A stretch of 59,258 bases of DNA, the filler included, from Sluysia triapertura (taxonomy: Eukaryota), in assembly GCA_046118255.1 (NCBI GenBank). It is 4 parts of 4 records of this genome, joined end to end, with 100 filler letters (N's around TTAATTAATTAA, not from the genome) between each part and the next. Parts side by side here need not be neighbours in the genome. Positions count along the whole stretch, not along the records: positions 45,503 to 59,258 come from JBJNIA010022181.1; 3 more parts are not named here. The stretch is one strand, 5' to 3'. Positions within the stretch are counted from its first letter, which is position 1, and every line of letters begins with the position of its first letter. Shown here piece by piece: positions 24,925 through 59,258 of the stretch. The translations under genes were made by a program, and so were the position numbers. The notes beneath the pieces are model-generated. The model had not been told where the DNA came from. It saw nothing but the letters and a program-made list of their open reading frames with translations, and did not search any database.

Positions 24925-25280
24925 CAGGATGAGTCATAAGTAACCGGGCAGTCAAAACGACACAAGATATTATTACATATTATGTAGATAATCTAACGGA
25001 ATAAATGCTCAAAATGTTTGCCTTCTTCTTCAGTGCATTTTGCAGTGCTTCGAACGACATAATAGCAAACTCTTCGACATATGTTTTCACTAATTCCTGT
25101 TCAAGAATTCATTATCATTTCGTTCTCGGCTTTTTGGCAAACACGGAATTTTTTAACACACCCCAAAGAAAAAAATCAGGAAGAGTATTCACATGCATTC
25201 AGATGTGTTGACATGATCTAAATCAAGAAATCAACCAACTGATCGGTGTAAACGTATTTTTGTACACTTAGATCACGGTT
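24925..25280 (-). mobile_element. Deleted Tc1/mariner element (GxHFEHL C-terminus)
   Basis: caggatgagtcataagtaaccg end; minus-strand DFFLWGV and EEEGKHFEHLF remnants. Confidence 0.72.
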
Positions 25281-26115
25281 ACTATTATTATTATTGTTTT
25301 AGAAAAATGTCCAATGATGATAATTTACCGTCCGCTAAATTCAAAATAATCTAAAATAGGTTTATAAATGTGTTAATAAATGAAAAATACGTTAATCGCA
25401 CTTTTGATTCAAATATAAGTAACTTAGTCAAAATACGTAAACGTACATATATATTTTAATAATCGCATGACATGATAAATAATATATCATATTTTTTAAA
25501 AAATCAATAATAATAATAATAATAATAATCTCGTAGAAACTAATTGTACGATACCAGCAGATCCAGACAAGACAGCAGCAGAAACAGCAGCACTGAGAAG
25601 CCACTTAAGAGTTAGTTGATGATGAGTTGCTTGGTAAGCGTGAGATACATTGAGCAAATTCAATATTGCGTTTCTGTTAGTACTGTTTAAATAATCGTCA
25701 CCAAATTGAGATACTAAAGAATAAACTGTATTATTTAGAATTCGGAAATAATACTATAAAGGTAGGATTGAACGTAGTGAATCAAAAATTTTTATTCTTT
25801 GGATATTAAAACAACAGAATGAAATATTCAAATAACATCAAGTTCACTAAGTCATTCATGTTTCATTGTTTTGTTGCACAAATTGCACCTGCTTTTAAAT
25901 CAATTAACTCATAACTGGCCGCTAAAAATTCTTAATCGACTGTTTGATGGCAACACAAAGCTATTCTGTGAAAAAAACGCGGTTACTGAATTTCGAATAA
26001 AAAATGACCTGTTACTACGTCAACAGCCAGTAATTAATTAATACAATGCATGGATGTAAGTTATTCTTTATGGATCAACAGTCAAATCTTTAATTTTCAT
26101 TCGATGTTATAACTA

Positions 26116-26646
26116 CAGTGGTGGCCAAATTATAAGACTAAAACAGGAAAAATATGCTTCTCGATGATCATGGTGCTACCCAGGCCTTGAAACTCTCCAA
26201 ACACGAATCCCATAGAAAATATCTGGGAGATTGTCAAAAGGAGAGTTTTTACCCATAAACCAACCCTGATAAAAGTATGGCATATCATGATGACGAGATC
26301 AAAGACTTGTGCACCAAGCTCATCCGTGGCATGCCTTTAAGAACCAGGAAATTATTGGATAACAAAGGAGAGCAAACAAAGTAGTGATACAACAGTTTGT
26401 ACATATTTGATTTGTAGTAAATTGTGTTATCCACTCAACATGAATAAAATTTCTGTATGTTTTGAATCTCAGTATTTTTATCTATTATTTTACTTTCACC
26501 AGAATTTTTTTTGGGGAAAGTAGTTATTTTCTAACATTTTACATGTTCCGTGACTACTGTCGATAAATGACAAGTATTTATATAATTGAAAAATGTTGAA
26601 TTTTATCATAAAAAAGATCTTTAGTCTAATAATTTTGCTACCACTA
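26116..26646 (+). mobile_element. Internally deleted Tc1 element with both TIRs
   Basis: ta|cagtggtggccaaattataagactaaa ... tttagtctaataattttgctaccact; NSP..NPIENIWEIVKRR. Confidence 0.9.
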
Positions 26647-27779: not shown

Positions 27780-28214
27780 CCTAGCCTGGAAACCCTCCAG
27801 ACATGAATCCCAGTAGAATTTCTACCCATAAACTAACTACCATGACAGAACTTATTGAAAAGTATGGCACCACAATGAGATCAAAGCTCATCCGTGACAT
27901 ATCTTTAAGGATCAGGAAATTATTGGTTAACAAAGGAGGGCAAACAAAGTACTGATACAAAGTACAATTTGTACATATTTGATTTGTAGAAAATTGTATT
28001 ATCACATTCTGAATGAATAAAATGTCTGTATGATTTGGATTTCAGTATTTTTATCTATTATTTTACTTTCAGCAGAATTTTTTTGGAGAAAATAGTTATT
28101 TTCCAACATTTTACATGTTTCGTGACAATATTTTTATATACTTTTGATTAATAGTTTCATAGTATCCTTGAAAAATGTTATCTCAAAAAAGGTCTTTAGT
28201 CTAATAATTTGGTC
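27780..28214 (+). mobile_element. Tc1 element right part (same family as 26116-26646)
   Basis: PGNPPDMNP remnant; right TIR tttagtctaataatttgg. Confidence 0.85.
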
Positions 28215-34481: not shown

Positions 34482-35981
34482 CTGCATCTGTTCGAACATT
34501 GGGTGTACATTTGGATTTTTGTACTTATCCGAATCCAAATTTAACGATTTTATTAAAAAACAAATTCTTCAGTTATACAAACTATAAAAGCAAGAGTATG
34601 AATAAGATAAATGCAACAAAATAAACAAGAATATTTCAATTTAACAATGATGACACTGAATCAACAGTTTCTATGGAACATCGTAAAGTTAATGTGGTGA
34701 ATCTTATAGGAATTCCTTCTTTTGCTAACATGTTTGCTTCTAGACAAGATTGAAATGTCATAAATTTATTGTCGAGTGTTTCTATATTTAATTCAGTAAA
34801 TGTATACTGCACACATTCAATTAATTCATCAATTGTACTCGGTGACGCTGTATGTTGTAACGATTGAAGTGAATTGAAAAAACCAAGATCCAATACATTG
34901 AAATCTGGACTATTGGGAGGTTGCAATTTAGGCTGGTTTGACAACCATATGTTGACCCTTCTCTTAAAACTTCACAAAAAGAGTGAGCTTTTGCATTATC
35001 ATCTGCATGTAAATTGTTTTGTGCTTCTCACTTCTTGGAAATTACTTTTGTCATGATTATTTTCTTGCATTTTTTTGCCGTAACTGACTCAATACTTTGT
35101 TCTATTTTTTGAATTTCTTTTGGCCGGCTCTTGACAGACAAAAGGCCATCTACCAAATTTTCCATCGAAACTTCGATTTTTGTGTGAATCATAGCGTGGC
35201 CTAGCTACAGTTGCCATGAATTTTACTTTCGTAATGAAACGTTTACTTTTACAACTTCTATGGGATTCTTCTTCATCCAACATAAGGTAATATGAACGTT
35301 TGGTTTGTGTTAAATAGAACCATTTTAGTCAATATGAACATATTTTCAAAATAGCCATCTGGCTTAACATGAATCAAGCAAAACGTTAATCTCATCAACT
35401 TATTTTATTCCGTTAAATATGGCCTAATAGCCGAAGATATACGTTTAAAACAAGTACTACGATTAAAAGTATCAAAAATTGTTGACTTTGGGATGTCAAA
35501 GTCAAATCTTCCGAATAATTTTTAGGTTTTCTTCCGCATTTTTCTTTTTTTGATGAAACATCCGCAAAAATTTGGCCGTCACTAAATTGTTTTTTTAGCT
35601 ATGTTCCAAATTCCGGAAACAGTTAATCTACTAACCTCGAAGTCAGCGGCAACAATGTTTATTGCACCATATTGCAATTTATTTCCTTTTTTGTATTGCA
35701 ATAACCATTAGTTGTGATTATTTTGATCTTTCTGATCACAATTTTCATTATGGTTTGCCATGTTGTACCCAAAGTGGATGAAATTTAAATTTAATTAAAA
35801 TGGTCATTTGTTTTTATTTTATTAATTTTGAAATTTGTTAATTATTGCAGCTCCATCTATTTGATTATTTTCTAACTAACACTTATTTGTATTTAAAATG
35901 AAAAAAAGGCTTAAATATTAACTACTTTCAATAATCCCGTATTTTTTTAGAAATGTATACCACATTTTCGGACAAAAGTAG
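34482..35981 (-). mobile_element. DD39D (plant-type) mariner transposon, near full length, decayed, in an MMUT intron
   Basis: HID.KWFY, HRSCKSKRFITKV.F...VARPR, FDGKFGRWPF, PAKRNSKNR, QPPNSPDFNVLDLGFFNSLQSLQ. Degenerate TIRs ctgcatctgttcgaacattgggtgtacattt / reverse complement ctacttttgtccgaaaatgtggtatacattt, each flanked by TA. Confidence 0.9.
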
Positions 35982-36127
35982 TAATAAATAACAAATTTCA
36001 TTTCATTTCATTTCTCAATATACTTAAGTTCTTACATTTTATTTGTAGTCAAGCCAAAACTAGACTAGAGTAAATTGATATAAATCATATGATAAATAGA
36101 TGTGTAAAAAATATAATTTTGACTAAC

Positions 36128-36264
36128 CTTTGAATTAACTCTTGTTCTCTTTAATTCATTTATTTTTGCAATTTGTGATTCTCTTACTTTCGTATTGTCA
36201 ATATGGAGAACATCGACACGTTGTTCTTTTTCCAAACGATACTTATTTACTCCGACAATTACCT
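36128..36264 (-). CDS. MMUT: Methylmalonyl-CoA mutase exon
   Basis: [46 protein letters not shown]|gttagt. Confidence 0.95.
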
Positions 36265-36315
36265 CTATAAAATTAACGTATATAGTGTTGAAATTAAAGA
36301 TAATGATAATATAAA

Positions 36316-36364
<49 letters not shown>

Positions 36365-37671
36365 TAACATTATATTGATTCATTTTTCAAATTCTCAAAT
36401 TTTCGAGTTTGAAATAAATGAATAATTTTCAAGTTTAAAAACTATTTAATTCAAATTCATTTAAAATAAAAATTGTTTAATTCATTTTAAATAAAATTAT
36501 TTTAAAAAGAAAAATTAAAATTATTAAAGCATTATTAAAGATTATAATGCTTTAAATCAATTTAAAATGAGATTTAATAGAGTTAATATAAATTCGAAAT
36601 TGAATAACAAATAGTAACCAGTTTTTGATTGAATTTAAACAAATAATCATCTTAAGATGAGATTCTCTAAAGAAAATGTAAAATCAAACTTTTAGAACAC
36701 AAAATCCAAGTAAAACTATTCTAATACGAAAGTGAAAATTTATATTAAATTGAAATTGAATAAAACCAGTATGTAATGAAAAAATTAACATTCTCGATCA
36801 AAATCATCGTAAATTAAAGATCTGGTAGAACAGAGAGAATAGTGTGATATCAAATTTAAAAGCATTTTAATCAAGAAAAATCATCATAGTCAAATAAGAA
36901 TGAATATAAATTATAATTTAATTCAGACAAAAGTCAATTATTATTATACAATATTTGATTAATACTACTATTGAATTCCTGTAATTAATTATTATAATTA
37001 ATTAATTATAATAATAATAATTATTATTATTATTACTTACTTACTTACTTACTTACAGTTATTAGAATACTATTATATTATTAAATTTGTGTTTTTATCC
37101 ATAATTGATCGTTAGAAAAGAGAGCCCCACAGAGAAAATAAACTAAAATAATATTAATCAAAGTTGAATCGGAGTGTCCTCACTAAATAAAGAAAAATTC
37201 GATTTTAAAAAATAAAATAAAGGCTTACTTTCCCGCACACGAGTAAACAAGTACACGATCTCATGCTTCTATATAATAAGTTTGACATATAAGCATTACT
37301 TTTAAAGTGAAATAATAGAGTCTATACGTCATAAAGTAAAATAATTACTAGGAAAACTTAAGTTGCTAATGACAAATAATTTATTTAAGTGAAGATATTT
37401 ACACTATTATCGAAGACTAAAGGTGCATATTAGTCAACGTTAAGATTCAGTATAAAGTAATTCAAAAACATTGAAGAATAATAACATTTTATAAAGAGCT
37501 TGAAACTTTACTGTTATAAAAGATAACAGTTAAAATTAGAATAAAGTGATCATATTGATAAAGAGATTTAGACATTAAGAATCCATAAAGGAACTTACAT
37601 TGAACTTACATTCGACTTTGAAAGAACCATTTTTAATTACTTTAAACACAACTTATTTAACTTTCACAATG

Positions 37672-45502: not shown

Positions 45503-46194
45503 TATTATATTATACTACATTATAATCTAGTGTATTTCGAATAATTCATTTTCCTCGATTTCTTTTTTCAAGCAATATTAAAATACTACTACTATTTTTC
45601 ATTGTCAGTAACAAACCTAAATGTACAGTTCATTTTTCTGTTTTTATTATATTAAATTGTTTCAATGTTAAGTGACACTCAGAATTTCCAAATCTCATCC
45701 ATATGTTTATTTACTATATAAATTATTGCATGTTTATGTGCTCTTTTTAAGTTACACTTCCAATAAAATCACTGTAAAGATATTATCAAATGAATTTCAT
45801 TTTGTCATTGTTTAAGAAAATGAAATAAATTCCTACAGTTATCACGATTCAATTTTTTTGAATATGTGTTGTTTTTATTTACTTAATTTTACAATTTACT
45901 TCTGTTTTTCTTCACACAGGCTTGTTTCCAACTATACTGCATCAATTTATATTAGTTTTAATATTTTTTTGATTATTTACTTCAAAGTTTGTAAATCGAT
46001 TGTTAACTTTAATATTAATTTTTTGTTTTTTTGTTTCATTTATTACAATCATGCTATTTTCTAAAAGCATGTTTATTTTATTAAAAGAAAAGCTAATAAA
46101 CTATTTCAAAATTTCTGTTGTGTGCATCTGGGCCTTCTTTCTTCTGTATCTGCTTCTCCTTCTTCTGTACCTTATATATAACACATATGCAATA

Positions 46195-46752
46195 CAGTGG
46201 TGGCCAAATTATTAGACTAAAGACCATTTTTGTGATAAAATTCAACATTTTTCAAGGATACTATCAAACTATTAATCAAAAATGTATAAAAACATTGTCA
46301 CGGAAAATGTAAATGTTGGAAAATAACTACTTTCTACAAAAAAATTCTGGTGAAAGTAAAATAATAGATAAAAATACTGTGATCCAAAACATACAGAAAT
46401 TTTATTCATGTAGAATGATAACACTATTTACTACAAATCTATTGTGTACAAACTGTTGTATCAGTACTTTGTTTGCCTTCCTTTGTTATCCATAATTTCC
46501 TGATCCTTAAAGACGTGCCACGGATAAGCTTGGGGTACAATTCTTTGATCTCGTCATCGTGATGCCATTCTTTTATTAGGGTTTCAATAAGTTCCATCCT
46601 GGTAGTTGGTTTATGGGTAGAAACTCTCCTTTTGAGAATCTCCCAGATATTTTATTTGAGATTTATGACTGGAGAGTTTCCAGGACAGCGTAGCAAATAT
46701 TAAGAAAACCAAAGATAATCATATTTTTCCTGTTTTAGTCTGATAATTTGAC
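46195..46752 (-). mobile_element. Internally deleted Tc1 element (family of 26116-26646), reverse orientation
   Basis: ta|cagtggtggccaaattattagactaaa ... ttttagtctgataatttg; minus-strand PGNSP...NIWEILKRR. Confidence 0.9.
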
Positions 46753-46762
46753 TAATAATATG

Positions 46763-46886
46763 TGTTAGACTTCATAAAATTGACTGACCGGAAATCGATC
46801 CAGGAGCCTCTCGCTACGATACATCAGCCCCGACTAACAATTTACACTATCATTATTCTATGGCACTTTAGGCGTATATCCCAAGA
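46763..46886 (-). mobile_element. tRNA-containing repeat copy with an internal deletion
   Basis: tgttagacttcataaaattgactgaccgg...atcagccccgactaacaa...tggcactttaggcgtatatccc. Confidence 0.8.
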
Positions 46887-46945
46887 CACATATATGTTAT
46901 ATGCCCATAAATACTTAATCACCGAAATAATGTTTACTTCAAATT

Positions 46946-46999
<54 letters not shown>

Positions 47000-47821
47000 T
47001 AAAATTGTAAAGTAAATAATTGCAATATATTTACTTTCAATATCAAAAAATTTAAAAAATTCCAGAAACTATCTCTATACTACTTACAATTATTATTTTA
47101 AGACATAAATCGTTCCAAATAGATATACCAATGAATTTCAAAGTGCATTAGGAAATCATCAAGCTGTAATTTTATATCCCAAAAAATAAATTGATTTTCA
47201 AACAAGTTTGTACTGGTTTAATAAATTCTAAATCCAAGATGGCTCTTTAGGGAGGATGTTCCTCAGCAGTATTATTAAAATCATTAAACCTATAGTTCAT
47301 TTATTCTAGAAGGACCAGCGAAATGAACATGAATTTAAAATCACAATGATTGCAGTAAAATTAAAATTGAAATCGATAATGTAGTAATAATATTACATTA
47401 TTTTAATTTACGTGATTTTAAATACTTGGAAACAACTGATAAAAGTCAACCAAGTTTATTATTACAAATTTATGGTAATATTATTGATTTTGTTAAGAAC
47501 TAGCTGTAGTCGAAATGTAATGGAAAATGTTTAGGACTGGAAATGCGAAGAAAGTGGGATGCGTCGTGAAATCATCACAATGAGCGAGAATATTTCTGAA
47601 CGTTTGAAGATTATAAATAAATGTATTGTGTTTTTTATGATTTCATAAAATAATTTTATAAATTAACTTAAACTGCGATTTAAATTTTGATAGGCTTCTA
47701 TTGTGTATATGTTGTTATCCCTGGATTTGAGTATTATAATTTATATTGATTGATTGAGTTATTGCACTTAGTGATTATTGATTTTATATTGAGTTTTATT
47801 GAATTATATTGCTATTTACAG

Positions 47822-48313
47822 GTAACTGTGTTTGACCGTGATAATGCCAAAGTAAACGGCCACATAGAGTGCCATGAACCTTCTCTTGTTTCAGGTCATC
47901 AGGATGTTTCATTCTATTTATCTAATCCCACTCAAAATCGTCGATCTGATTCCTGTGAATTTGAAGTTCGTACCAGGTACAAATTTGATCGAGAAGATAT
48001 GACCAATCAAAATCGTCAAATTAAAACAGTTATTGTGATGGATCAGAACGAATCTCAATCGGATTTGCTTAGTAAATCGACCAGATATTTGCATAACAAA
48101 GAAGTCTATATTAAGGCATATTTAGTTTGTATAGATGGAGTCGGATTGGAGGATAAATCAACAAATCGAGATCAAGTTTCAATTCGATTAACATCGACAT
48201 TAACTTTATCAGTTTTAATTGAAGATGTAAATGATAATTCACCTGTATTTGAAACAAATCTTTATCAAGCACAAATCCGTGAAAATTTAGAAGCTGGATC
48301 AGCTTGCATACAG
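47822..48313 (+). CDS. Protocadherin-like exon (cadherin EC repeat with a long insertion)
   Basis: VTVFDRD..VNG, FDRE, C.DG, IEDVNDNSPVF, IREN cadherin Ca2+-binding motifs; cag|...|gtcgat. Confidence 0.93.
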
Positions 48314-48539
48314 GTCGATTTTAATTATTTTTGAAACATGCTTCTAAGTTACTGTTTTTATGATTATTTGGATATGATTTATGTGATTTTTTCCTTTTTA
48401 TTGATTTAAAAATTTGATCTTCATTGAATCTCTTGCGCGACTAATAAATGTTTTTACATATTTTAATTTATGAACTTACAATTGCACAATAGAAACCTCC
48501 ATAAGTGGTTTACTATAGTATATATAAACAAAAAACGTA

Positions 48540-48748
48540 CAGTGTGTCCCAAAAGTAACCGAACCGCAAACTTAAATAAAAATTAGATATCAAAAAAGAC
48601 AAATGTAATTTTTTCTTCTATGCCATTTTATGTTATCTTCGTTACTATTTGAATAGTAGTCTTTGGAATGACTTTTGTTCTGACGTTATCGTGGATATTT
48701 TGAACATTTGTAAATACTCAATATACCTATTAAATTTGAGACACACTG
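48540..48748. mobile_element. Short deletion derivative of the 49777-50568 mariner-like family
   Basis: ta|cagtgtgtc ... gacacactg|ta. Confidence 0.85.
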
Positions 48749-49106
48749 TATATATAATATGAGATCTCTGAGTGTGTGATGATCAATGTGGGAAGCCATT
48801 GAATCTGATAGGGTAGTCATTGTGGTTAACCAACAAGAGCACATGAATGTATCGGGATAGTTGCGGAAGGAATTAAAATAAAGTAATTCTTTTCAATAAA
48901 CATTGCGCTGCTGTTTATTTGATGAAGTTTATAAGTAATATAATTTCATTAAATTACGTAAAATTGATATAAAATCAATTTAAAGTAATAAAATGAATTA
49001 AAATTTGTAGAATATCTTGAAAAAACACAAATAAATTGTAAATTGTAGATTGTAGATTGTAAACTGTGGTACGATTTTAATAAATTAATTTAGTTATATA
49101 ATTTAG

Positions 49107-49250
49107 GTTAAAGCAAATGATAATGATTACGGGGAAAATTCAAAATTGTTTTATTATATCAAAGGAACTGACGACTTTAGTATTGATCCTGTTACAGGAT
49201 GGATAAAAACGAAGCGTAAGTTTGATCGCGAAACGGAGAATAATTTTCTA
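49107..49250 (+). CDS. Protocadherin-like exon
   Basis: VKANDNDYGENSKLFYYIKGTDDFSIDPVTGWIKTKRKFDRETENNFL|gtacgt, in phase with the previous exon. Confidence 0.93.
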
Positions 49251-49329
49251 GTACGTTTTATTATTATTTTATTTATTTATTTTAAAAAAGTTTCTATAAA
49301 TTTAGATTTTTTATTAGAGAAATTTCCAA

Positions 49330-49649
49330 TACAATGAAAATCATATTTACCTTCAAAATCTATAATTCACATTTTTAAATTCATTATAAACACTTTCTTA
49401 CATAGTTCAATACCAACATAACCAAAATCATATTTTTTTCAACATCACACAATTATCTTTTAGAATGTACCAAAAGATAGGCTACATTTATCTTCTTTAC
49501 ATCCACTAAACCACATTTTTAAGTCACAATCTCCTAACATCCAAACATTACTTTCAATCAAAACATCAATGTTTTTTTAAAAATCCATATAAAACATTTT
49601 CAAGAAAAGTTTAATAAGATTTGTAAAAAGTAATAGGTTGGCCATCGCA
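49330..49649 (+). mobile_element. C/A-rich tract ending GTTGGCCATCGCA: short derivative of the TGT...ACA family
   Basis: Resembles the reverse complement of about 58860-59000 and ends in the inverted terminal motif. Confidence 0.45.
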
Positions 49650-49776
49650 GTGTGAAAATAAAATAATAGTAAAAAATATTTATTTAATTAATTTTGAAAA
49701 ATTACAAATTAATTTTATAAATATTTGATTGATGTTTTTGTTTGATTCCAAGTACACACGTTTATATTATACTAAA

Positions 49777-50568
49777 CACGTTGTCACAAAAGTAATCGAA
49801 CAGCAAACTTAAATAAGAATTATATATCAAAAACGACAAATTTAATGGATATATTTAGTATTTACAAATGTTCAAAATGTCCACCTTGTACTTCAATACA
49901 AGCATGACATCTTTTGACAACACTGCGACATACTTTCTGACAAGTTTCCTCTGAAATTTGATTCCATTCGTGCTGAATGATTTGTTTTAGTTTATCAATT
50001 GTCCTAGGCTTTTTAGCATCAACTGCATTCTTTAGAACTCCCCATAGAAAAAATTCAGGAGCTGGCAGGCCAGGAAATGTTTCATCAAGCCATTGTCGAA
50101 CATCTTTGGTAAAACAAGATACTCCATCTTGTTGAAAATGAAGATCACCGAGATAGAAACTCAATAACAATAGAGAACACTTCAAATTTGGATAAAAGAT
50201 TGAATATTGTCGACTTACTTGGTACAGGTGTTCTGAAATTTACCCGATCTTACTTCAACATGCTTGTAGCTAGACCTTGCATAGCAATCCTTAATAACGA
50301 AGATACATTCGTTTAAATCTAAAGTCCTTCGCTGCATTTGTAAGAATGAGGGTCCAGAACCGCTAGCTGAACAAATATTAAACAATGACGTCAAAACAAA
50401 ATCAATAAGATCACGTAACAGAAGTCATTCCCATGACTACTATTCGCAGAAGGAAATGAATGGTAGCGAAGATAACATAAAATGACATAAAAGAAGAAAT
50501 TACATTTGTGGCTTTTGATATCTAATTTTTATTTAAGTTTGCGGTTCGGTTACTTTTGGGACAACCTG
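49777..50568 (-). mobile_element. Tc1/mariner-superfamily element (rosa/DD41D-like C-terminus), internally deleted, both TIRs present
   Basis: FQQDG, WLDETFPG, FFLWGVLK, GGHFEHL; TIRs ca.gttgtc.caaaagtaa.cgaac.gcaaacttaaata. Confidence 0.9.
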
Positions 50569-51129
50569 TATTATTAGACTGGTGATATTTCTTCTGAACG
50601 AAGCCCATTCTCCTAAGAAGGTTGTCAATCCTTGTTTAAACATAAATAAGACTTCAAAGAAAAATTTTGATTTTAAGAAGATAATCGAAACGAGCATCAT
50701 TAATGAAGGCAATTTATTTAAGTCGACTGAATTTAGTTCACATTTTCACATTTTCATTATACAAAATAATCAGTACTTTCAATATAAATACATAATACAT
50801 AATAATAAGATTGTTCAACATTAATTGTGTATCAATCAAATGTTCAGATGCTTTTGAAGATTTCTACTAATTCTAAACATCTTTTTAATTCAATAAAATG
50901 TGATTTGTGAAACATTGCTTTGATATTTAAATAAATCATTTGAATATTGATAAACGTAGTAGTATCTATAATATAATTGGTCTAAAACGTGCCAATTAAA
51001 AACTTGTATAATTATAGTAATGAAAATAAAATGATCAGAACATCGAATTGTGCGGTGAAAGGTTCTCATGTTCGCACATTGAAAACAAAATTTAAATATT
51101 CAGTTATTTTGCTTTTATTTTATAATAAT

Positions 51130-51167
<38 letters not shown>

Positions 51168-54100
51168 TAATAATCAAATGATATAGAGCGGTTCTTACAA
51201 AGAACATAACGATATCTTGTAAGGGAAGTATAGTGTAGAAGATTTTATAAGATTAAATAAAGTAATAATAATTATTATTATAATTATTATTATATAAATA
51301 TAATGATAAAAATAGAAAAAAATAATTAGTTAATTTCAGACAATTTAAGCCTCATTTCTTTGTAAATAGTTTAAATAATGTTACATAACGATACATAAAT
51401 AATTAAATTTATAAAAATTATTATTAGTAATTATTATTTTCGTTTAGAATTATTTTTTAACTAAACGTAGCACTAAAAATAAAAAAATTAAAAATTAAAA
51501 AATCTATATGAAACTGGAAAATATTTAAAGTAGAATAAAGCAAAAGTTTTAACGTGAGTCCACCAACGTACTGGGATTACCAGTTAAGTTCAGCCGTTGG
51601 ATTTGTAGATAAAAGTAAAAGGTAAAAAGAATTGCCTCAAAATGTAGCGTTAGTTGAAATCTTCTTTATTTGATTTTATTATTATTATTAGTTTTTCGAA
51701 TCTTTTAGAAATATAAAAGTACTAATAATAATTTAATAGATATTTTACGTGGATCCTGTGAAAAGGATCGTTTATAGATATTTTACGAAGTTAGAATTAA
51801 AATCTAACTAGGGAAATCGTTTCGTAGTATCAATTTTATATTTAAGGCTATTTAATTTAATAATAAGAACAATAATTTTACGGAAAATTGTACTGAACAG
51901 TAAGAAAAATGAAATGACTTTTACAAATAAAAATAATAATATAATTTACAAAGAAATTATTCTATGTAAGTCCTATCTCAATAATATTTTTATCAAAAGA
52001 GTTTATTATGAGATCCAAATAGTTATTAAATAATTTAAGTCTATTTTAAGTTGATATCTCTAGGATATCTAAACTTATTATAAATAAACTAACTGATTAC
52101 TTTTTAAAAAGAAATTATCGATTGATCTGGCCACTATTGAGTGCTTGAAAACATAGATTATCGTAGATGGGGACCAAATTATGCTTCAGTGATCTATACC
52201 AAATTTCTGTTTCCAAATTTTACGAAATACCAAATGATTATGAAGATTTTGTGTAAAATTGTGTTGTTTCCAATTGATATAAAATTATTGTGTCAAATTG
52301 AGATTTATTCTATCCTTATATATAAATTTTACTGACCTTGGCCAGATCATTCTTTAAAATAAAATTTTAATTTAATAAAACAAAATTGCATAAATTTAAA
52401 ATTTAAAAATTTAATAGATAATGAACATGTCAATAATATATACAAAAATAAAAAATTAATATTTACAAAAGTTCAAAATTTAACATTTACAAAATAAAAA
52501 ATAAAACATACTTTTGATAATGATGAATATTTAAAATAATTGTCCGAAATGAAATAAAAATTTCTAATAAAAAATCAATAATTATAAATATTAAAAGTTT
52601 TACATGTATATAAGTCAATAAATCAAAGATCATTATTAAAAGTCATCTATAAATCAAAGTATTAAAAGTTATCAATTAATCAAAGACCATGATTCACTTG
52701 TAAATTAAAAACGAACCTATTCTTTTCCAATTAATGAACACCAAATCCAAATTTAATATACTCACTTTAACCAATAAAATACTGCTGCGATTTCTACTTG
52801 AACCTAGCAAATATGATTAAGTTATATGGGTTAACCTGAAATCAACGGTTTATATGCAAGAAGACGTTGTTCCATGTTTTTATCAGTTAAGTAGTTTATG
52901 CAGTTAAGTTTCCTCTAATCTTGATTCAAAATAAAATTAATATTTCAAATGAGGGTCTGTCTTTTAATAATTGAATTTTATCATTAATTATCTTTCCTAA
53001 TTGTGTTAGTTTACTATGCTTCTTTCAGTTATTTACTATTCTTAATCTTTAAATATACTTAAAGCTAAAAGATGTTATGTATATTCTTATTAACAAATGA
53101 ACACCAAAGTACTCGAAAATTTTATTAAACACAATTAAATAAAATAATGTGGTAAGCAATGATAGATATAATAATAAATTCAATATTTAAAATTTCTCTT
53201 AATTTGTTGTTTTATATTTTAAATTAGATTTTAATCCAGGAGGACATCTTGGATTTTTTAAATATTCAATATTGTGAGTAGAAGCTTAATGCTTACGATT
53301 GATTATAAATCCTCGATAAGCGTCAGTGTCCAATGGATTGTTATAGTCAATCGAATTTGTAAATTGACAGTGGAAAAACCAAATTAGATGAATTATCGAA
53401 TGATTTGACTTCACAAGAATCAACATAAAAGCTCTGTGAAGATTAACTTTTGTAAAATTATTGTGTGTAACGATTAACTTTTGTAAAATTATTGTGTGTA
53501 ACGATTAACTTGTGGTATCATTTTATATTTCATAAAATCGTAGGTTAAATAATGATAAAATAGTAATAATAAAAAGTTTATTACACATTTTTATAGCATA
53601 AATAAAATATGCTATGTTTACTTCTATTTAATTATTCTATTTATTTACAAAATAAAAGATAATTATAAATATTTACAAACTAATAATTATTGTAAATATT
53701 TATGAATTATATATTTACATTTAAAGACAAAAACAAGATATTAAATTTTTTTACAATTGTAATTAAACTTTAAAGAAAATTACATTAAATTTTTACAATT
53801 AGAACAATTTATAGAAACTGAAATTACGCACACAAGGAGTACACTAAACCAGGAAGCCCACACTTCCTCCCTTGGGATGATTGTTTTTCTTGGACATTTT
53901 TATCCACTCATAACACTAATCTTTAATCATTAAAACTCAATTTAGATTTTCTATAACGAAAGGTAAATGCTCACATAGTCTCGATTAATGATAAGTAAAA
54001 ATCTTTATCATCAAGCTCTCAACGATTATTTTAACTTATACAAAAGATGAGTTGACAAGTATAAGTTCAGATTCAATAATGATAAAGTCTATATTCTGAT

Positions 54101-55023
54101 TCATAACAGTGAAGGTCTTATAAGTTTTCCAAATAAAATTTTCGTACTTTCAATTTATTGGGTTTAATTTCAATTCATTCAAAATTCTGATATCAACTAT
54201 AGTATATTATTATGTCACTTCGGCCATACTCCCTGAAAAAATAATATCTTCTTATAAATTGTGTTTGCATGGCCTACTTTCTGTTCGTACTTGCAAGAGA
54301 TTGTATATTTTAAATTATAATCTCTATCTTTTAACATCTGAAAATATTTTCAGTACGGAAACAACATTTAATATTTAATTGATTCATACAATATCACAAT
54401 ATATGAATTTAAGCTTTGAAATAAATATAATATACGAAACATACATCAACTAAAATATCAGTCTGAATATCTATTGTCTCTAATTTTCCTCAGTAAGGAG
54501 TAAAATTTCATTCATAATTTTAAATGATTTAAATAAAAATGTATATAAGCATAAATCATATAATCAGTCAAAAATAAATTTATTTATCAACACTTTTTAA
54601 TCAGGAAATAAAATGAATAAGAACTTATCCAACTACATATTTCTTCAACTTCATTGTAAGCGATGTTTCTTCTTCGTTTGATGAATCCATATATATATAT
54701 ATATATATATATATTTAATGTCTTTAAAATGTTAAATCACAGTAATTGTTTTGAAAAATTAAATATATTTTTAAATAATTTATTTCGAATTTATAAATCT
54801 TGGTAAAAATACAATTTTGTAAGCATGCAACACACAAATTACTCTTTGTGAGTGAGACTATTTGAAAATGTATGTTTATTTTATTTGGTGACAATGTTAG
54901 CTTGTTTCCCTGCTATTATTAGCTGCATTGTAAATCAAGAATAAGTTGTGCACCTCATATATGACTGAGATTACTAATGAGAAAATATGTTTAATATAAT
55001 GTCGATTCATATAATATATTTAG

Positions 55024-55081
<58 letters not shown>

Positions 55082-56913
55082 TTCGTATTTAAATACTAAA
55101 TCGAAAACAATATAAAACTTGCATGATACAAAATAGAGTTTATATTATTATTATATTAGATATTTAACGAATAATTTGCCAGTTAGTATTAATCAAATAA
55201 TTGTTTGCCTATTGGTTAACAACTCAATATTTTATATGAATTTAATAAATCATCACGGATTTTCAGTTTTCTGTAATTGGGAAAAAATCGATGATTTTTT
55301 TTTCATGAAATAAAATTTCATTTAATCTGAGAGTTTTACACTTGTAATGCCTGGATTTTTTTCTAAACGAGACAATAATACAACGACAAGTACTGATTCT
55401 GGTATTGGAAATAGTATCATGAAATCGGATTCTGTTGATGAATTTGATAAGGGTTGGTGTCTCATTATTTTAGAAATAAATATTTTTATTATTTTCTGTT
55501 GAAAAATATACATCATTGGATTTTGAATGTATTTTATCATTTCATTAAATTTTATTTTAATTAATTACAGAATCGCAGAATAGTTTCTGTGAATTAAATA
55601 AATAATATAAATTTACTTAATAAAAATATAAATATTAATTATAAATTATAAATTTTAAATAAAAATTTGATTGATCAATAATTTTTTTGGGAGTGGTGTT
55701 CGGTTTTTGTAGCAAGTAAGTATCCATACTAAGCCAATTAAATTTTTTATAAAGGGTATTACAAGAAATTGAGCACTGCAGTTATAATTAATGATGTCAA
55801 AAGAAGCTGCTAAGAAAAAATGTCCCAAAGATCACGACTTTTCTCCCGTAATGCTTATATTATTTATTCATTTCTATCAAAGGAAGTTGCCAGTGGAAAT
55901 CCTTGTGAAAAATTGAAATAAGTCGTTCATTAATTGTGGATTAAGTGAATTATTTCATAAATATATGCACCCGGAGATATTTAAGATTATTATGACCGAG
56001 TAGAGTCTAAGAAGTGTTATGGGGATATATGAAAAACCAATGATTTTGGATTCATCTTTGAAAGATCGTTCAAATACGTTTTCTCTCCTTGAACTACAAT
56101 ATAAACATTGTAGGAACAAAATAATATCAGACAAAAACCAAAATGAAAAATAATTTGATATTAGTAACTTATCGCAACCTGATGAACCCTTCTATGTAAA
56201 CAATGAATGAATTTGTAAACAATGTTTCAAGATATTCTATAATTTTCTTGTATTCATAAATAAAATATTTTCATAAAAATATCATAAAAATATTTTCTGA
56301 TGTTTACAAGAAAAGTTATCTTTATAAACGCATGATACTAACAACCCTAAGGATACACAACAGGTTCGAAATTAGTCAATGGATTTACTTTACACATGTT
56401 ATTTAATAAATATTAATAAATCTTTAAAGTTTCAAATTAGTTTGAAACACTTTGTGAAGTTAGTAATTTTTAGTAATATTTAGTAATATTTAGTAATATT
56501 TTACAGAAATAATCAATGCTAACAAAATATTTTCAATTTTTTAAAATTTTATTTATATTTAATAATTTTATTTTACATTATTGTAAAGCCAGTATTTGTA
56601 TTGATGGTGTTGTAGTTTATGTTTATATATAATGTCTATTACTTTTAAATTGAAATAAATTTTTACGTTTTTTTGAGTTATGTTTACATTAGAATTAAAA
56701 TCATAATATCCGTTTTCAAATTTAATTAATTTGCAATCATTTTTAGCTTTAAATGAATTAAGAAAAACATTAATATTTATTGTATTTAAATTTAAAATTT
56801 TATGGATAGCTAAATTTGAAATTATTTTTTTGCACATTCCCTTGAGCAATCTGTCCACGTTTCTAAAAAATATTAAAGAATAATAAAACATGAATATAAG
56901 AGTATCAACAAGT

Positions 56914-57575
56914 TTAGAATGAAATAATATGATTACTTTTAAGTTGACATTTCTTGTCCAGAGATATCTCTCTCAATGATGAAACAAGCTGTCGAATTCG
57001 ATGATTGTGATTTGTTAAGTGTGACGTCCAAGAGAAGTTATCCGTGAGTTCAGTTGCATTGTGTGCGTGTAGACAGTTATTGCCATACTTTGCACAATGT
57101 CCGTCTAGAGTCACAGCATACATACACCAACCAGAATTGAAGTGTCGTGACTCATCATCCAGATTTGATCTTGTCCTTTGAGTTTCGTTAGTGGACGTAT
57201 CAGTTTGAACGACGTTCTCTTTTAAAAGCAATTTTTTAATGATTGGAATTTTTGGCGTTTTAAGTTTTAAAATTTTGGAAATTTTAAGTTCTTCAATTAT
57301 TTCCGGTCTTACTAATGATTTCAACAATTCAAATTGACATATATACGATCGATTATGTTGAATTCGTTTCTTTTTTCCAACATAATGAAAACATCTTGCG
57401 GGGTCTTTAATGTCCCATTCGAATCACGTCTATCAAATAAATAACACATAAAAAATAAGTCATTATTATTTAACTTAAAATTTTTATGAATAATTTCTAA
57501 TTCGTTTTTATTATCAATAATTAAACTTAAAAGAGTAGCACTTAGAGCATCATATTTTTGCAAGTCTACATAAAA
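56914..57575 (-). pseudogene. Death effector domain plus CCCH zinc-finger ORF with one frameshift near 57335-57345
   Basis: Joined frames: NELEIIHKNFKLNNNDLFFMCYLFDRRDSNGTLKTPQDVFIMLEKRNEFNIIDRI/CQFELLKSLVRPEIIEEL (DED-like), then C-x9-C-x6-C-x3-H followed by NATEL. Confidence 0.6.
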
Positions 57576-57751
57576 CTCACAAAATCGTTTTTCTTAGTTT
57601 CAAAACTATTTTTTTTCAAAACAAATATAAAGACATAAATTTACTTCAAACTTTCGCTTAAATTTATCACGTACATGTCTTCCTTTACATTTGACCAAGT
57701 ACGTTCACCACTAATATTTTCTAGATCATCGGCATTTCTTCAACACGTGAA

Positions 57752-58150
57752 TCAGATTGTTCCAGAATTCTTTCTAAAATGTGGTAAAATACTTAAATAA
57801 TCTTCTTGGATTCGAACAAAACGAATATTATTTTCTAAATCTTTAGTACCACCAATTTGATCATACATAAAATCATCTTCATCTATAACTAATGAGTTAA
57901 TAGTTAAATCATTTCTTAAGACATTTATTTTCCTATCTTTTGTAAATTGACCTTGTGCTCTGTGGCCATCAGTTATAGCATCTAATCGTAGAGTAGTTAT
58001 TTCAACATTTACTTTATCATTGCTTCCAACATTTGTTGATTCTGTGAGGGCTTTTAATCTAAGCTCAATGTCTTCATTATTATTAATTGCCATTTGACGA
58101 TCTACATTTAATCTACGGAATATTTTCGTATCTTTTAAAATCAATTGCAA
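57752..58150 (-). pseudogene. Intronless ORF of unknown function directly upstream of the DED ORF
   Basis: 132 open codons in AT-rich DNA; continues downstream with stops and frameshifts. Confidence 0.45.
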
Positions 58151-58399
58151 TATCGTTAAAGCAAATTTTATTTTTTATGAAACACCAAAAAATGATTACA
58201 CACTACTGGTTAAGTGATAACAGTAATCTTTAAAGTAAGTTTTATTATTAATATAAAATCAATAAATTGTATATGTGTCCTGTCTGATTAATAAAATTAA
58301 CTTGTACATAAATTTTGATGATAAATCTTTTTTGTATACCGTGATTGGATACCCAATCAAAAGAAGAAAAACAAACATTAATAATCATGATTGGGCAGA

Positions 58400-59148
58400 T
58401 GGATAGAGAGTGCATGTAATGAACTGTCATCAGTCGACAGTTAGTAAAGTAACATCAATTGATTAAATTTCTGTCGACTGATGGCAGATTAACTAATGTA
58501 AATTTTAGTGTGTGTTGAATTTAGGACCATTATAAGTAGTGACAATAAGCTGTAATTATGAATTAATGATGTCACCACTGGTAGTGGTAGTTACAAAGTT
58601 AGTAAATTGATAAAATCTTTAATGAAATAATGTAGAATAAAAATGATGATAGTAATAATAATAACACAAATCCTTTAAACTTAACATGATCTTCCTAATC
58701 TTTAGCTTTTTTTCTCAACATATTTGAATTGTCTTTATTTACTGAAATGCTAGTTCTTAAAATATTTGAAGTTCTTTTTTGATTACTAAGTTTAAAATTA
58801 ATTTTATAACGTGACTTTAATATTTTTCGATGATCTACAAGATTGAGTGTTGAAAATTATGAGCTTGAAATGTTTTGAATTAGTTTTAAATGCGTATTTG
58901 ATAGTTTAAGATATAAATTGTAGTTCTAATGTTGCGAGATTATAAGTTAAAATGTTCTAAATGAAATTTAAATGTGCATTAATTATTTTGGACATAAGTA
59001 TGGTTTTGATGTAAGATTGTGAATTTAAAATGTTTTGAAATGTAAAAAGGTTTTAATAGATCTGAGAAAGTAAAATGTAAGATGTAAAAAATGTGATATT
59101 TTGTATGAATTAATAGTTTAAATTCCAAGTGAAACGTTGGCCACCACA
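58400..59148 (-). mobile_element. Terminal region of the TGT...ACA element family (LTR-like) with two long hairpins
   Basis: Minus strand starts TGTGGTGGCCAAC, then a C/A-rich tract; hairpins at 58526-58588 and 58424-58487. Confidence 0.55.
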
Positions 59149-59258
59149 GATGGCATTTTATTAATATTATGAAACTAGTTTTAAAACAGTTATTTATTAC
59201 TTATTTAAATAAAATCGAATAAAAATTTTATTTGATAAATTTTAGTCTAGGTTATAAT

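Follow-up and report, generated by a model that had tools for sequence, protein, structure and literature searches.

About 1 kb inside the sharp TG end of a multi-copy repeat, the genome of Sluysia triapertura carries a cargo in which part of the CCA-adding enzyme TRNT1 (one half of its head, its neck and its apparent body) is followed by one CCCH zinc finger of the Unkempt type. The stretch likely represents dead gene shuffling rather than an anti-apoptosis cargo, and the repeat that carries it is probably a non-autonomous mobile element of the gene-capturing kind, for which we infer an LTR class, an RNA route and passive spread. The DNA read, hereafter the window, comprises 59,258 nt, filler included, in four joined parts of assembly GCA_046118255.1, within which positions 45,503–59,258 belong to JBJNIA010022181.1. 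Its composition is AT-rich and animal-like, and it contains spliced host genes at 255–6308 (plus strand; RNase III by Pfam, Drosha-like by eye), 36065–36379 (minus strand; methylmalonyl-CoA mutase by Pfam) and 47750–48334 (plus strand; protocadherin-like cadherin by Pfam). The features of the cargo and its surroundings are listed below.

59136–59148, minus strand: element terminus TGTGGTGGCCAAC, marked by loose contig ends and a drop in depth
58600–59135, minus strand: C-rich, G-poor non-coding leader (about 550 nt), the most repeated part, marked by skew and depth
58515–58590, minus strand: hairpin or palindrome 1 (z −3.7 on the minus strand, −2.6 on the plus strand)
58420–58492, minus strand: hairpin or palindrome 2, with a stem of 13–17 bp and a loop of about 30 nt (z −5.5 on the minus strand, −6.2 on the plus strand)
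58018–57773 (match) in ORF 57752–58174, minus strand: second half only of the TRNT1 head, profile columns 120–206, E 1.5e-22
57644–57739, minus strand: TRNT1 neck with SGER motif, profile columns 229–255, E 0.0027
about 57566–57390 (match) in ORF 57321–57593, minus strand: probable TRNT1 body, first half of the supposed death effector domain, columns 287–350, E 1.2
57199–57360, minus strand: probable end of the TRNT1 body (ELLK ... PKxP), second half of the supposed death effector domain, columns 359–405
57049–57147, minus strand: single Unkempt-type CCCH finger, Pfam zf-CCCH_UNK E 2.3e-5
56914–57048, minus strand: 44-residue tail and stop codon, still multi-copy

A preliminary description of this locus had proposed a gene for a death effector domain (DED) followed by a TIS11-like finger, in two overlapping minus-strand ORFs. 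Both ORFs are present, at 57321–57593 (90 aa) and 56914–57423 (169 aa), in different frames, and the peptides quoted from them were found; the adjoining upstream ORF at 57752–58174 (minus strand), which encodes the TRNT1 head, had been overlooked, and the true start, with the head of a CCA-adding enzyme, lies about 0.45–0.6 kb further upstream than the extent given for the gene. This upstream ORF matches Pfam PolyA_pol above the cut-off (E 3.6e-8) and human TRNT1 in the PDB (E 5.5e-15). The animal TRNT1 profile was built from five of the six head-domain homologues, the distant P0007 being left out and four of the six being named TRNT1, and was scanned against all stop-to-stop ORFs of at least 25 aa in the whole window. 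Only four of these 1219 ORFs matched at E ≤ 5, and the four are adjacent, all on the minus strand and collinear from 58174 to 56917; the last of them, 56917–57423, which holds the end of the body, scored E 0.73. The neck piece is in the frame of the head, with two stops between them, and over head and neck together the identity to animal TRNT1 is 37–43%.

The body is weak when taken alone: the best blastp E-value against the six homologues was 0.092, tblastn alignments with TRNT1 stop at the neck and do not reach the body, and a phmmer search of the "DED" stretch against the PDB gave no match, TRNT1 included. Read through the frame break with an X, the same stretch reached 17.9 bits with a profile restricted to the half of the enzyme that follows the neck; none of 2000 shuffles reached this value (1881 of them were listed by HMMER, the best at 12.4 bits), and the reversed stretch scored −1.1 bits. 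The ELLK and PKxP residues at its end are conserved in the TRNT1 body, where E, L, P and P are invariant in the six-row alignment. Judged by profile score, position and order, the stretch that had been described as a DED is very probably the body of TRNT1.

The same residues, which fit the TRNT1 body collinearly behind the head and neck, gave no DED in Pfam, neither with the ORFs searched singly (E ≤ 1) nor with both joined by an X across the break (E ≤ 10, a search in which the HMMER filters remove most matches above an E of about 0.1), and none in the PDB, whether as halves or as read-through. The tetrapeptide RxDL is a motif of the last helix of DEDs; the position equated with it reads RPEI and aligns to the TRNT1 helix that follows ELLK. 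For the first ORF, AlphaFold run on the single sequence gave an all-strand model (pLDDT 65.5, pTM 0.47, the five models ranging from 39 to 66), a quality too poor to judge the fold. In the ESM Atlas the "DED" ORF reached a recognition value of 1997, below 2300; the best rows listed were phage DUF7207, rows 6, 7 and 14 were C-terminal families of CCA enzymes, which we take as a lead only, and there was no DED among the rows listed. No relatives of this ORF were found among 86 candidates. It is thus extremely unlikely that a Burro-like element carries here an inhibitor of caspase-8 signalling with DED-CCCH architecture, as had been suggested. In favour of that reading, the stretch is leucine-rich and helical in pattern, and passages of PMC6431247 describe Burro elements that carry BIR, BCL2-like and MATH domains; against it stand the missing Pfam and PDB matches, split or read across the break, the ESM Atlas rows listed, the absent RxDL, and the register with TRNT1 behind its head and neck. 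As no DED was found in Pfam or the PDB, the reading of the cargo as an apoptosis modulator resembling viral FLIPs fails as well.

Class II CCA-adding enzymes, according to passages of PMC12166844 and PMC2910056, depend on three motifs, namely A (GGxVRD, DxD), B (RRD) and D (EDxxR). Motif A is missing from the copy described here: it was not recognisable in the three upstream frames, and an 88-column N-terminal profile gave no positive score. In the alignment to TRNT1 in the PDB, motif B reads RND instead of RRD and motif D, EDxxR, reads EDYLS. Of the 449 profile columns, the TRNT1 match reaches no further than 405, and the tail domain is therefore gone. A single frameshift had been reported, whereas the enzyme part is interrupted by at least two frameshifts and several stops. 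In line with the description of the locus as intronless, unlike the host genes, 818 nt span 285 profile columns, which leaves no room for an intron, and the host genes of the window consist of short exons. A candidate intron with GT...AG ends at about 57640–57600 was rejected, as the profile needs about 32 residues where there are about 26 codons; the frame test on this candidate was weak (0.4 bits). In relation to animal TRNT1 (8cbm_E, 4x4w_A, 1ou5_A; PF01743), a class II CCA-adding enzyme, the copy thus shares the order of second half of the head, neck and body, and differs from it in lacking motif A and the tail, in its altered motifs B and D, in its broken frame, in its fusion to a zinc finger and in being multi-copy. 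As far as its sequence can tell, the TRNT1 copy is truncated, intron-free and dead, presumably having lost the introns of the host TRNT1 gene, and without the catalytic motif A the protein of the founder, too, was probably unable to add CCA.

The zinc finger has the described form, C-x9-C-x6-C-x3-H followed by NATEL; its start is at 57126, and no other CCCH-like motif was found in the six frames of the window. With zf-CCCH_UNK (PF25427) it scores 24.7 bits, below the cut-off of 31.1, and its sole PDB match is Unkempt (5elh_A 93–127, E 2.5), in exact register. TIS11/ZFP36 proteins have two fingers with x8-x5-x3 spacing. The assignment to that type had to be revised, as the finger is single, with no tandem pair, and its x9-x6-x3 spacing agrees with Unkempt finger 3, with which it also shares the G-C-K motif and the lead-in residues; it differs from Unkempt in standing alone, outside a three-finger cluster, and in falling below the Pfam cut-off. 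The finger is in frame with the TRNT1 body, across a linker of about 17 residues. It is of an RNA-binding type, and for this part the earlier proposal of an RNA-binding cargo stands. Passages of PMC12136788 report that, of the two Unkempt clusters, 4–6 is the stronger binder of A/U-rich RNA and 1–3 the weaker, and from this a lone finger would be expected to bind RNA weakly. No relatives of the finger ORF were found among 582 candidates, which were longer proteins. One match among 1.84 billion representatives was to a repetitive protein, aligned outside the finger, and was judged to be due to chance.

The terminus that had been pointed out, TGTGGTGGCCAAC, is present on the minus strand at 59148–59136; the first ORF starts 1555 nt away from it. 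Copy evidence was taken from the public run X1; run X2, with a small share and low depth, was left out. All of 56700–59148 is multi-copy in run X1. Right behind 59148, 25 contigs of this run depart from the window with flanks that disagree among themselves (agreement 0.45), which fixes the end at the TGT, and the summed depth past this point drops from thousands to 60. On 56700–59258 there are 3197 contigs, 269 of them at least 99% alike, 598 at 95–99%, 1151 at 90–95% and 1179 below 90%, so that 2330 of the 3197 are less than 95% alike. One and the same variant is common to up to 51 contigs near the finger, 47 in the body and 70 near the terminus. The summed depths, which are not copy numbers, amount to 350–2,350 over the ORFs, 3,600–4,100 over the hairpins and about 10,000–25,000 over 58850–59107, and this rise suggests that the end and the hairpins are common to more elements than is the cargo.

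The joint between body and finger is spanned by one 190-nt contig with 29 differences. Between the two parts the depth dips to 346, as against about 1,700–1,800 on either side, and 6 of the 15 contig joints listed connect the finger side to other points of TRNT1; not all copies, therefore, need share the exact fusion. Some contigs have small indels near the frame breaks, and the breaks thus differ among copies. Among 40 listed differences from the contigs of run X1 (500 further differences lie outside the listing), 21 are in the coding pieces, and 6 of these 21 are synonymous where a fraction of 0.28 is expected at random; a share so near to chance fits neutral decay of this copy. Most of the listed differences are private to this copy; they document its decay and carry no information about selection in the founder. 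Six of the 40 are CpG sites that are kept here (58893–58894 and five others in 56700–59258) and lost in most other copies, which may point to CpG decay within the family.

For hairpin 2, none of 200 shuffles was as good; it matched no Rfam family at the gathering score. Two Rfam matches fell below the threshold. The hairpins in 58420–58590 and a third one at 22555–22645, an arm of which resembles hairpin 1 of the leader behind 59148, have facing TGACA/TGTCA-like cores over a loop of 20–30 nt, and two of the three have the better z-score on the strand opposite the cargo. Rather than RNA stems, the three hairpins may be pairs of DNA sites to which proteins bind.

The mobile-element context that had been proposed is upheld as far as the multi-copy region and its sharp end at the TGT terminus are concerned; a link to Burro or Gypsy, an RT or integrase and a second end were not found. 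The far end of the element was not seen in 49–58 kb, and the window ends 110 nt past the terminus. A second LTR and a primer-binding site were not found, nor were a transposase for this element or a pair of terminal inverted repeats (TIRs) with target-site duplication around the cargo. For this one copy, Gag, RT and integrase were absent both by Pfam in 22 ORFs and by a motif scan of the window, and 56400–58400, read with X at the stops, gave no Gag, RT, integrase or transposase. A metagenome match to the terminus, in one contig of 51% GC and over 25 nt only, was judged to be due to chance.

A second end, at 23456, is homologous to that at 59148, with a local score of 177 compared with 121 ± 11 for shuffles (best of 60, 154). 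It closes a unit of 3.3 kb, 20132–23456, with inverted TGT(A/G)GTGGCCA ends that match at 11 of 13 nt and with no protein cargo seen. The flanking 4-mers of the unit match at 3 of 4 positions, and the sequence inward of each end is rich in C. It contains assembly gaps, and its two ends may therefore not belong together. A solo LTR and an empty relative are both conceivable for this unit; protein comparison between it and the 59148 element gave low-complexity matches only. The ends at 20132 and 49649 have nothing beyond the motif in common with the 59148 end (z −0.1 and 0.5). A variant terminus, TGCGATGGCCAAC, on the minus strand at 49300–49649, is G-rich inward, a skew opposite to that of the ends at 59148 and 23456, and apart from the motif it resembles neither of them.

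Several other repeats occur in the window. Sites with TACAGTGGTGGCCAAA at 26117 and 46196, and a variant at 19819, were considered and set aside as belonging to another repeat family and not to this terminus. Members of the family that starts with TACAGTGGTGGCCAAA are about 80% alike (19816, 26114–26645, 27812–28212 and 46196–46750) and have a GTGGCCAA core in common with the TG-ended family; they have the look of ends of the Tc1/mariner type. Decayed pieces that by eye resemble C-termini of Tc1/mariner DDE transposases lie at 49862–50239 (minus strand), 2882–3346, 48538–48738 and 34636–34971 (minus strand); Pfam does not name these pieces, and there are inverted ends around 48538–50570. A tRNA-like unit at 23697–23768 (minus strand) has an odd anticodon loop and is itself a repeat, with partial matches at about 15025–15370 and 46765–46811.

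The explanation that we favour, with moderate confidence, is that a non-autonomous TG-ended element captured a fragment of TRNT1 through RNA, by template switching, and was then spread in trans. A piece of the host TRNT1 mRNA would have been copied into the transcript of the element, most likely by template switching during reverse transcription of the LTR type, and would have landed between the hairpin-bearing leader and the finger segment. Enzymes supplied in trans would have carried the chimera to dozens of places, where it then decayed. The protein of the founder would have been at most an RNA-binding chimera incapable of CCA addition, and the present copy would make nothing intact. LTR-mediated chimeric retrocopies, including ones that join several genes, are known across animals, as passages of PMC5131818 describe. 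The same cargo may instead lie in a DNA transposon with TGT...ACA ends, by capture at the DNA level or by uptake of an existing retrocopy, a minor but real possibility; such a carrier would be Pack-TIR-like or, under a label that we assume, Ginger-like. The 20132–23456 unit lends this alternative its inverted ends, its flanking 4-mers and its inward C-richness at both ends, and multi-copy Pack-TIRs exist in animals, according to passages of PMC8277862. It is weakened by the fact that an inverted match of 13 nt only is found in LTR ends as well, by the weakness of a flank match at 3 of 4 positions, by the gaps in the unit, whose ends may not pair, and by a cargo without room for introns and with no transposase of the family seen.

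Two related readings grant the protein a use. It is unlikely that a family of animal mobile elements serves as a standing exon-shuffling platform, taking up host mRNAs in frame into a slot between an invariable hairpin leader and an invariable Unkempt finger, with one lineage that kept a dead CCA enzyme as a tether or protector of the tRNA primer. That the present chimera was itself kept for a function, its dead CCA-enzyme body binding tRNA and its finger binding the RNA of the element, so as to load or shield the tRNA primer, is quite unlikely. For the latter it can be said that the body domain binds the acceptor stem and T loop of tRNA (passages of PMC12166844), that LTR elements, which need tRNAs as primers, are a target of 3'-tRNA fragments (passages of PMC7472051), and that the fusion is in frame and multi-copy; this copy, on the other hand, is broken, shows no synonymous bias and has lost the tail domain, and a lone finger of the Unkempt cluster 1–3 should bind RNA weakly (passages of PMC12136788). 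A host retro-pseudogene or small gene family, segmentally duplicated and next to a repeat end by chance, would agree with the failure to find a far end; it is very unlikely, given that the cover runs unbroken from the cargo through the leader to the sharp end at 59148 and then drops, and that the copies are mostly 80–95% alike with unlike flanks.

Among known systems, the LTR-mediated chimeric retrocopies of Tan et al. 2016 (described in passages of PMC5131818) share with the captured TRNT1 fragment a truncated, intron-free host piece within an element and the joining of two host genes; those have a flanking LTR pair and microsimilarity at the junctions, and here the chimera itself has been amplified to many copies. 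The animal Pack-TIRs of Tan et al. 2021 (passages of PMC8277862) have in common with it the multi-copy state and the host sequence, and the related unit has short inverted ends, whereas for this copy no TIR pair or transposase was found and the cargo looks RNA-derived. The giant Gypsy elements of planarians, Burro (passages of PMC6431247), likewise combine host-derived domains with an AT-rich animal host, but no counterpart was found here of their polyproteins, which are Gag-Pol-Env-like, measure about 5,000 aa and include BIR, BCL2 or MATH domains; in the text of that review neither "CCCH" nor "death effector" occurs. Gene capture by transposons is already known, and apoptosis regulators are among the host domains of Burro (passages of PMC6431247). 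In the open-access literature, supplements aside, we found neither a transposon-borne CCA-adding enzyme nor a DED-CCCH element.

The identification of the enzyme body removes a false DED-CCCH architecture. In its place stands a clear animal case of a mobile element that has multiplied a fusion between two RNA-binding host genes with no relation to each other. Should there be intact copies under selection, counter-defence by a cargo that binds tRNA, in an element primed by tRNA, would be a new idea.
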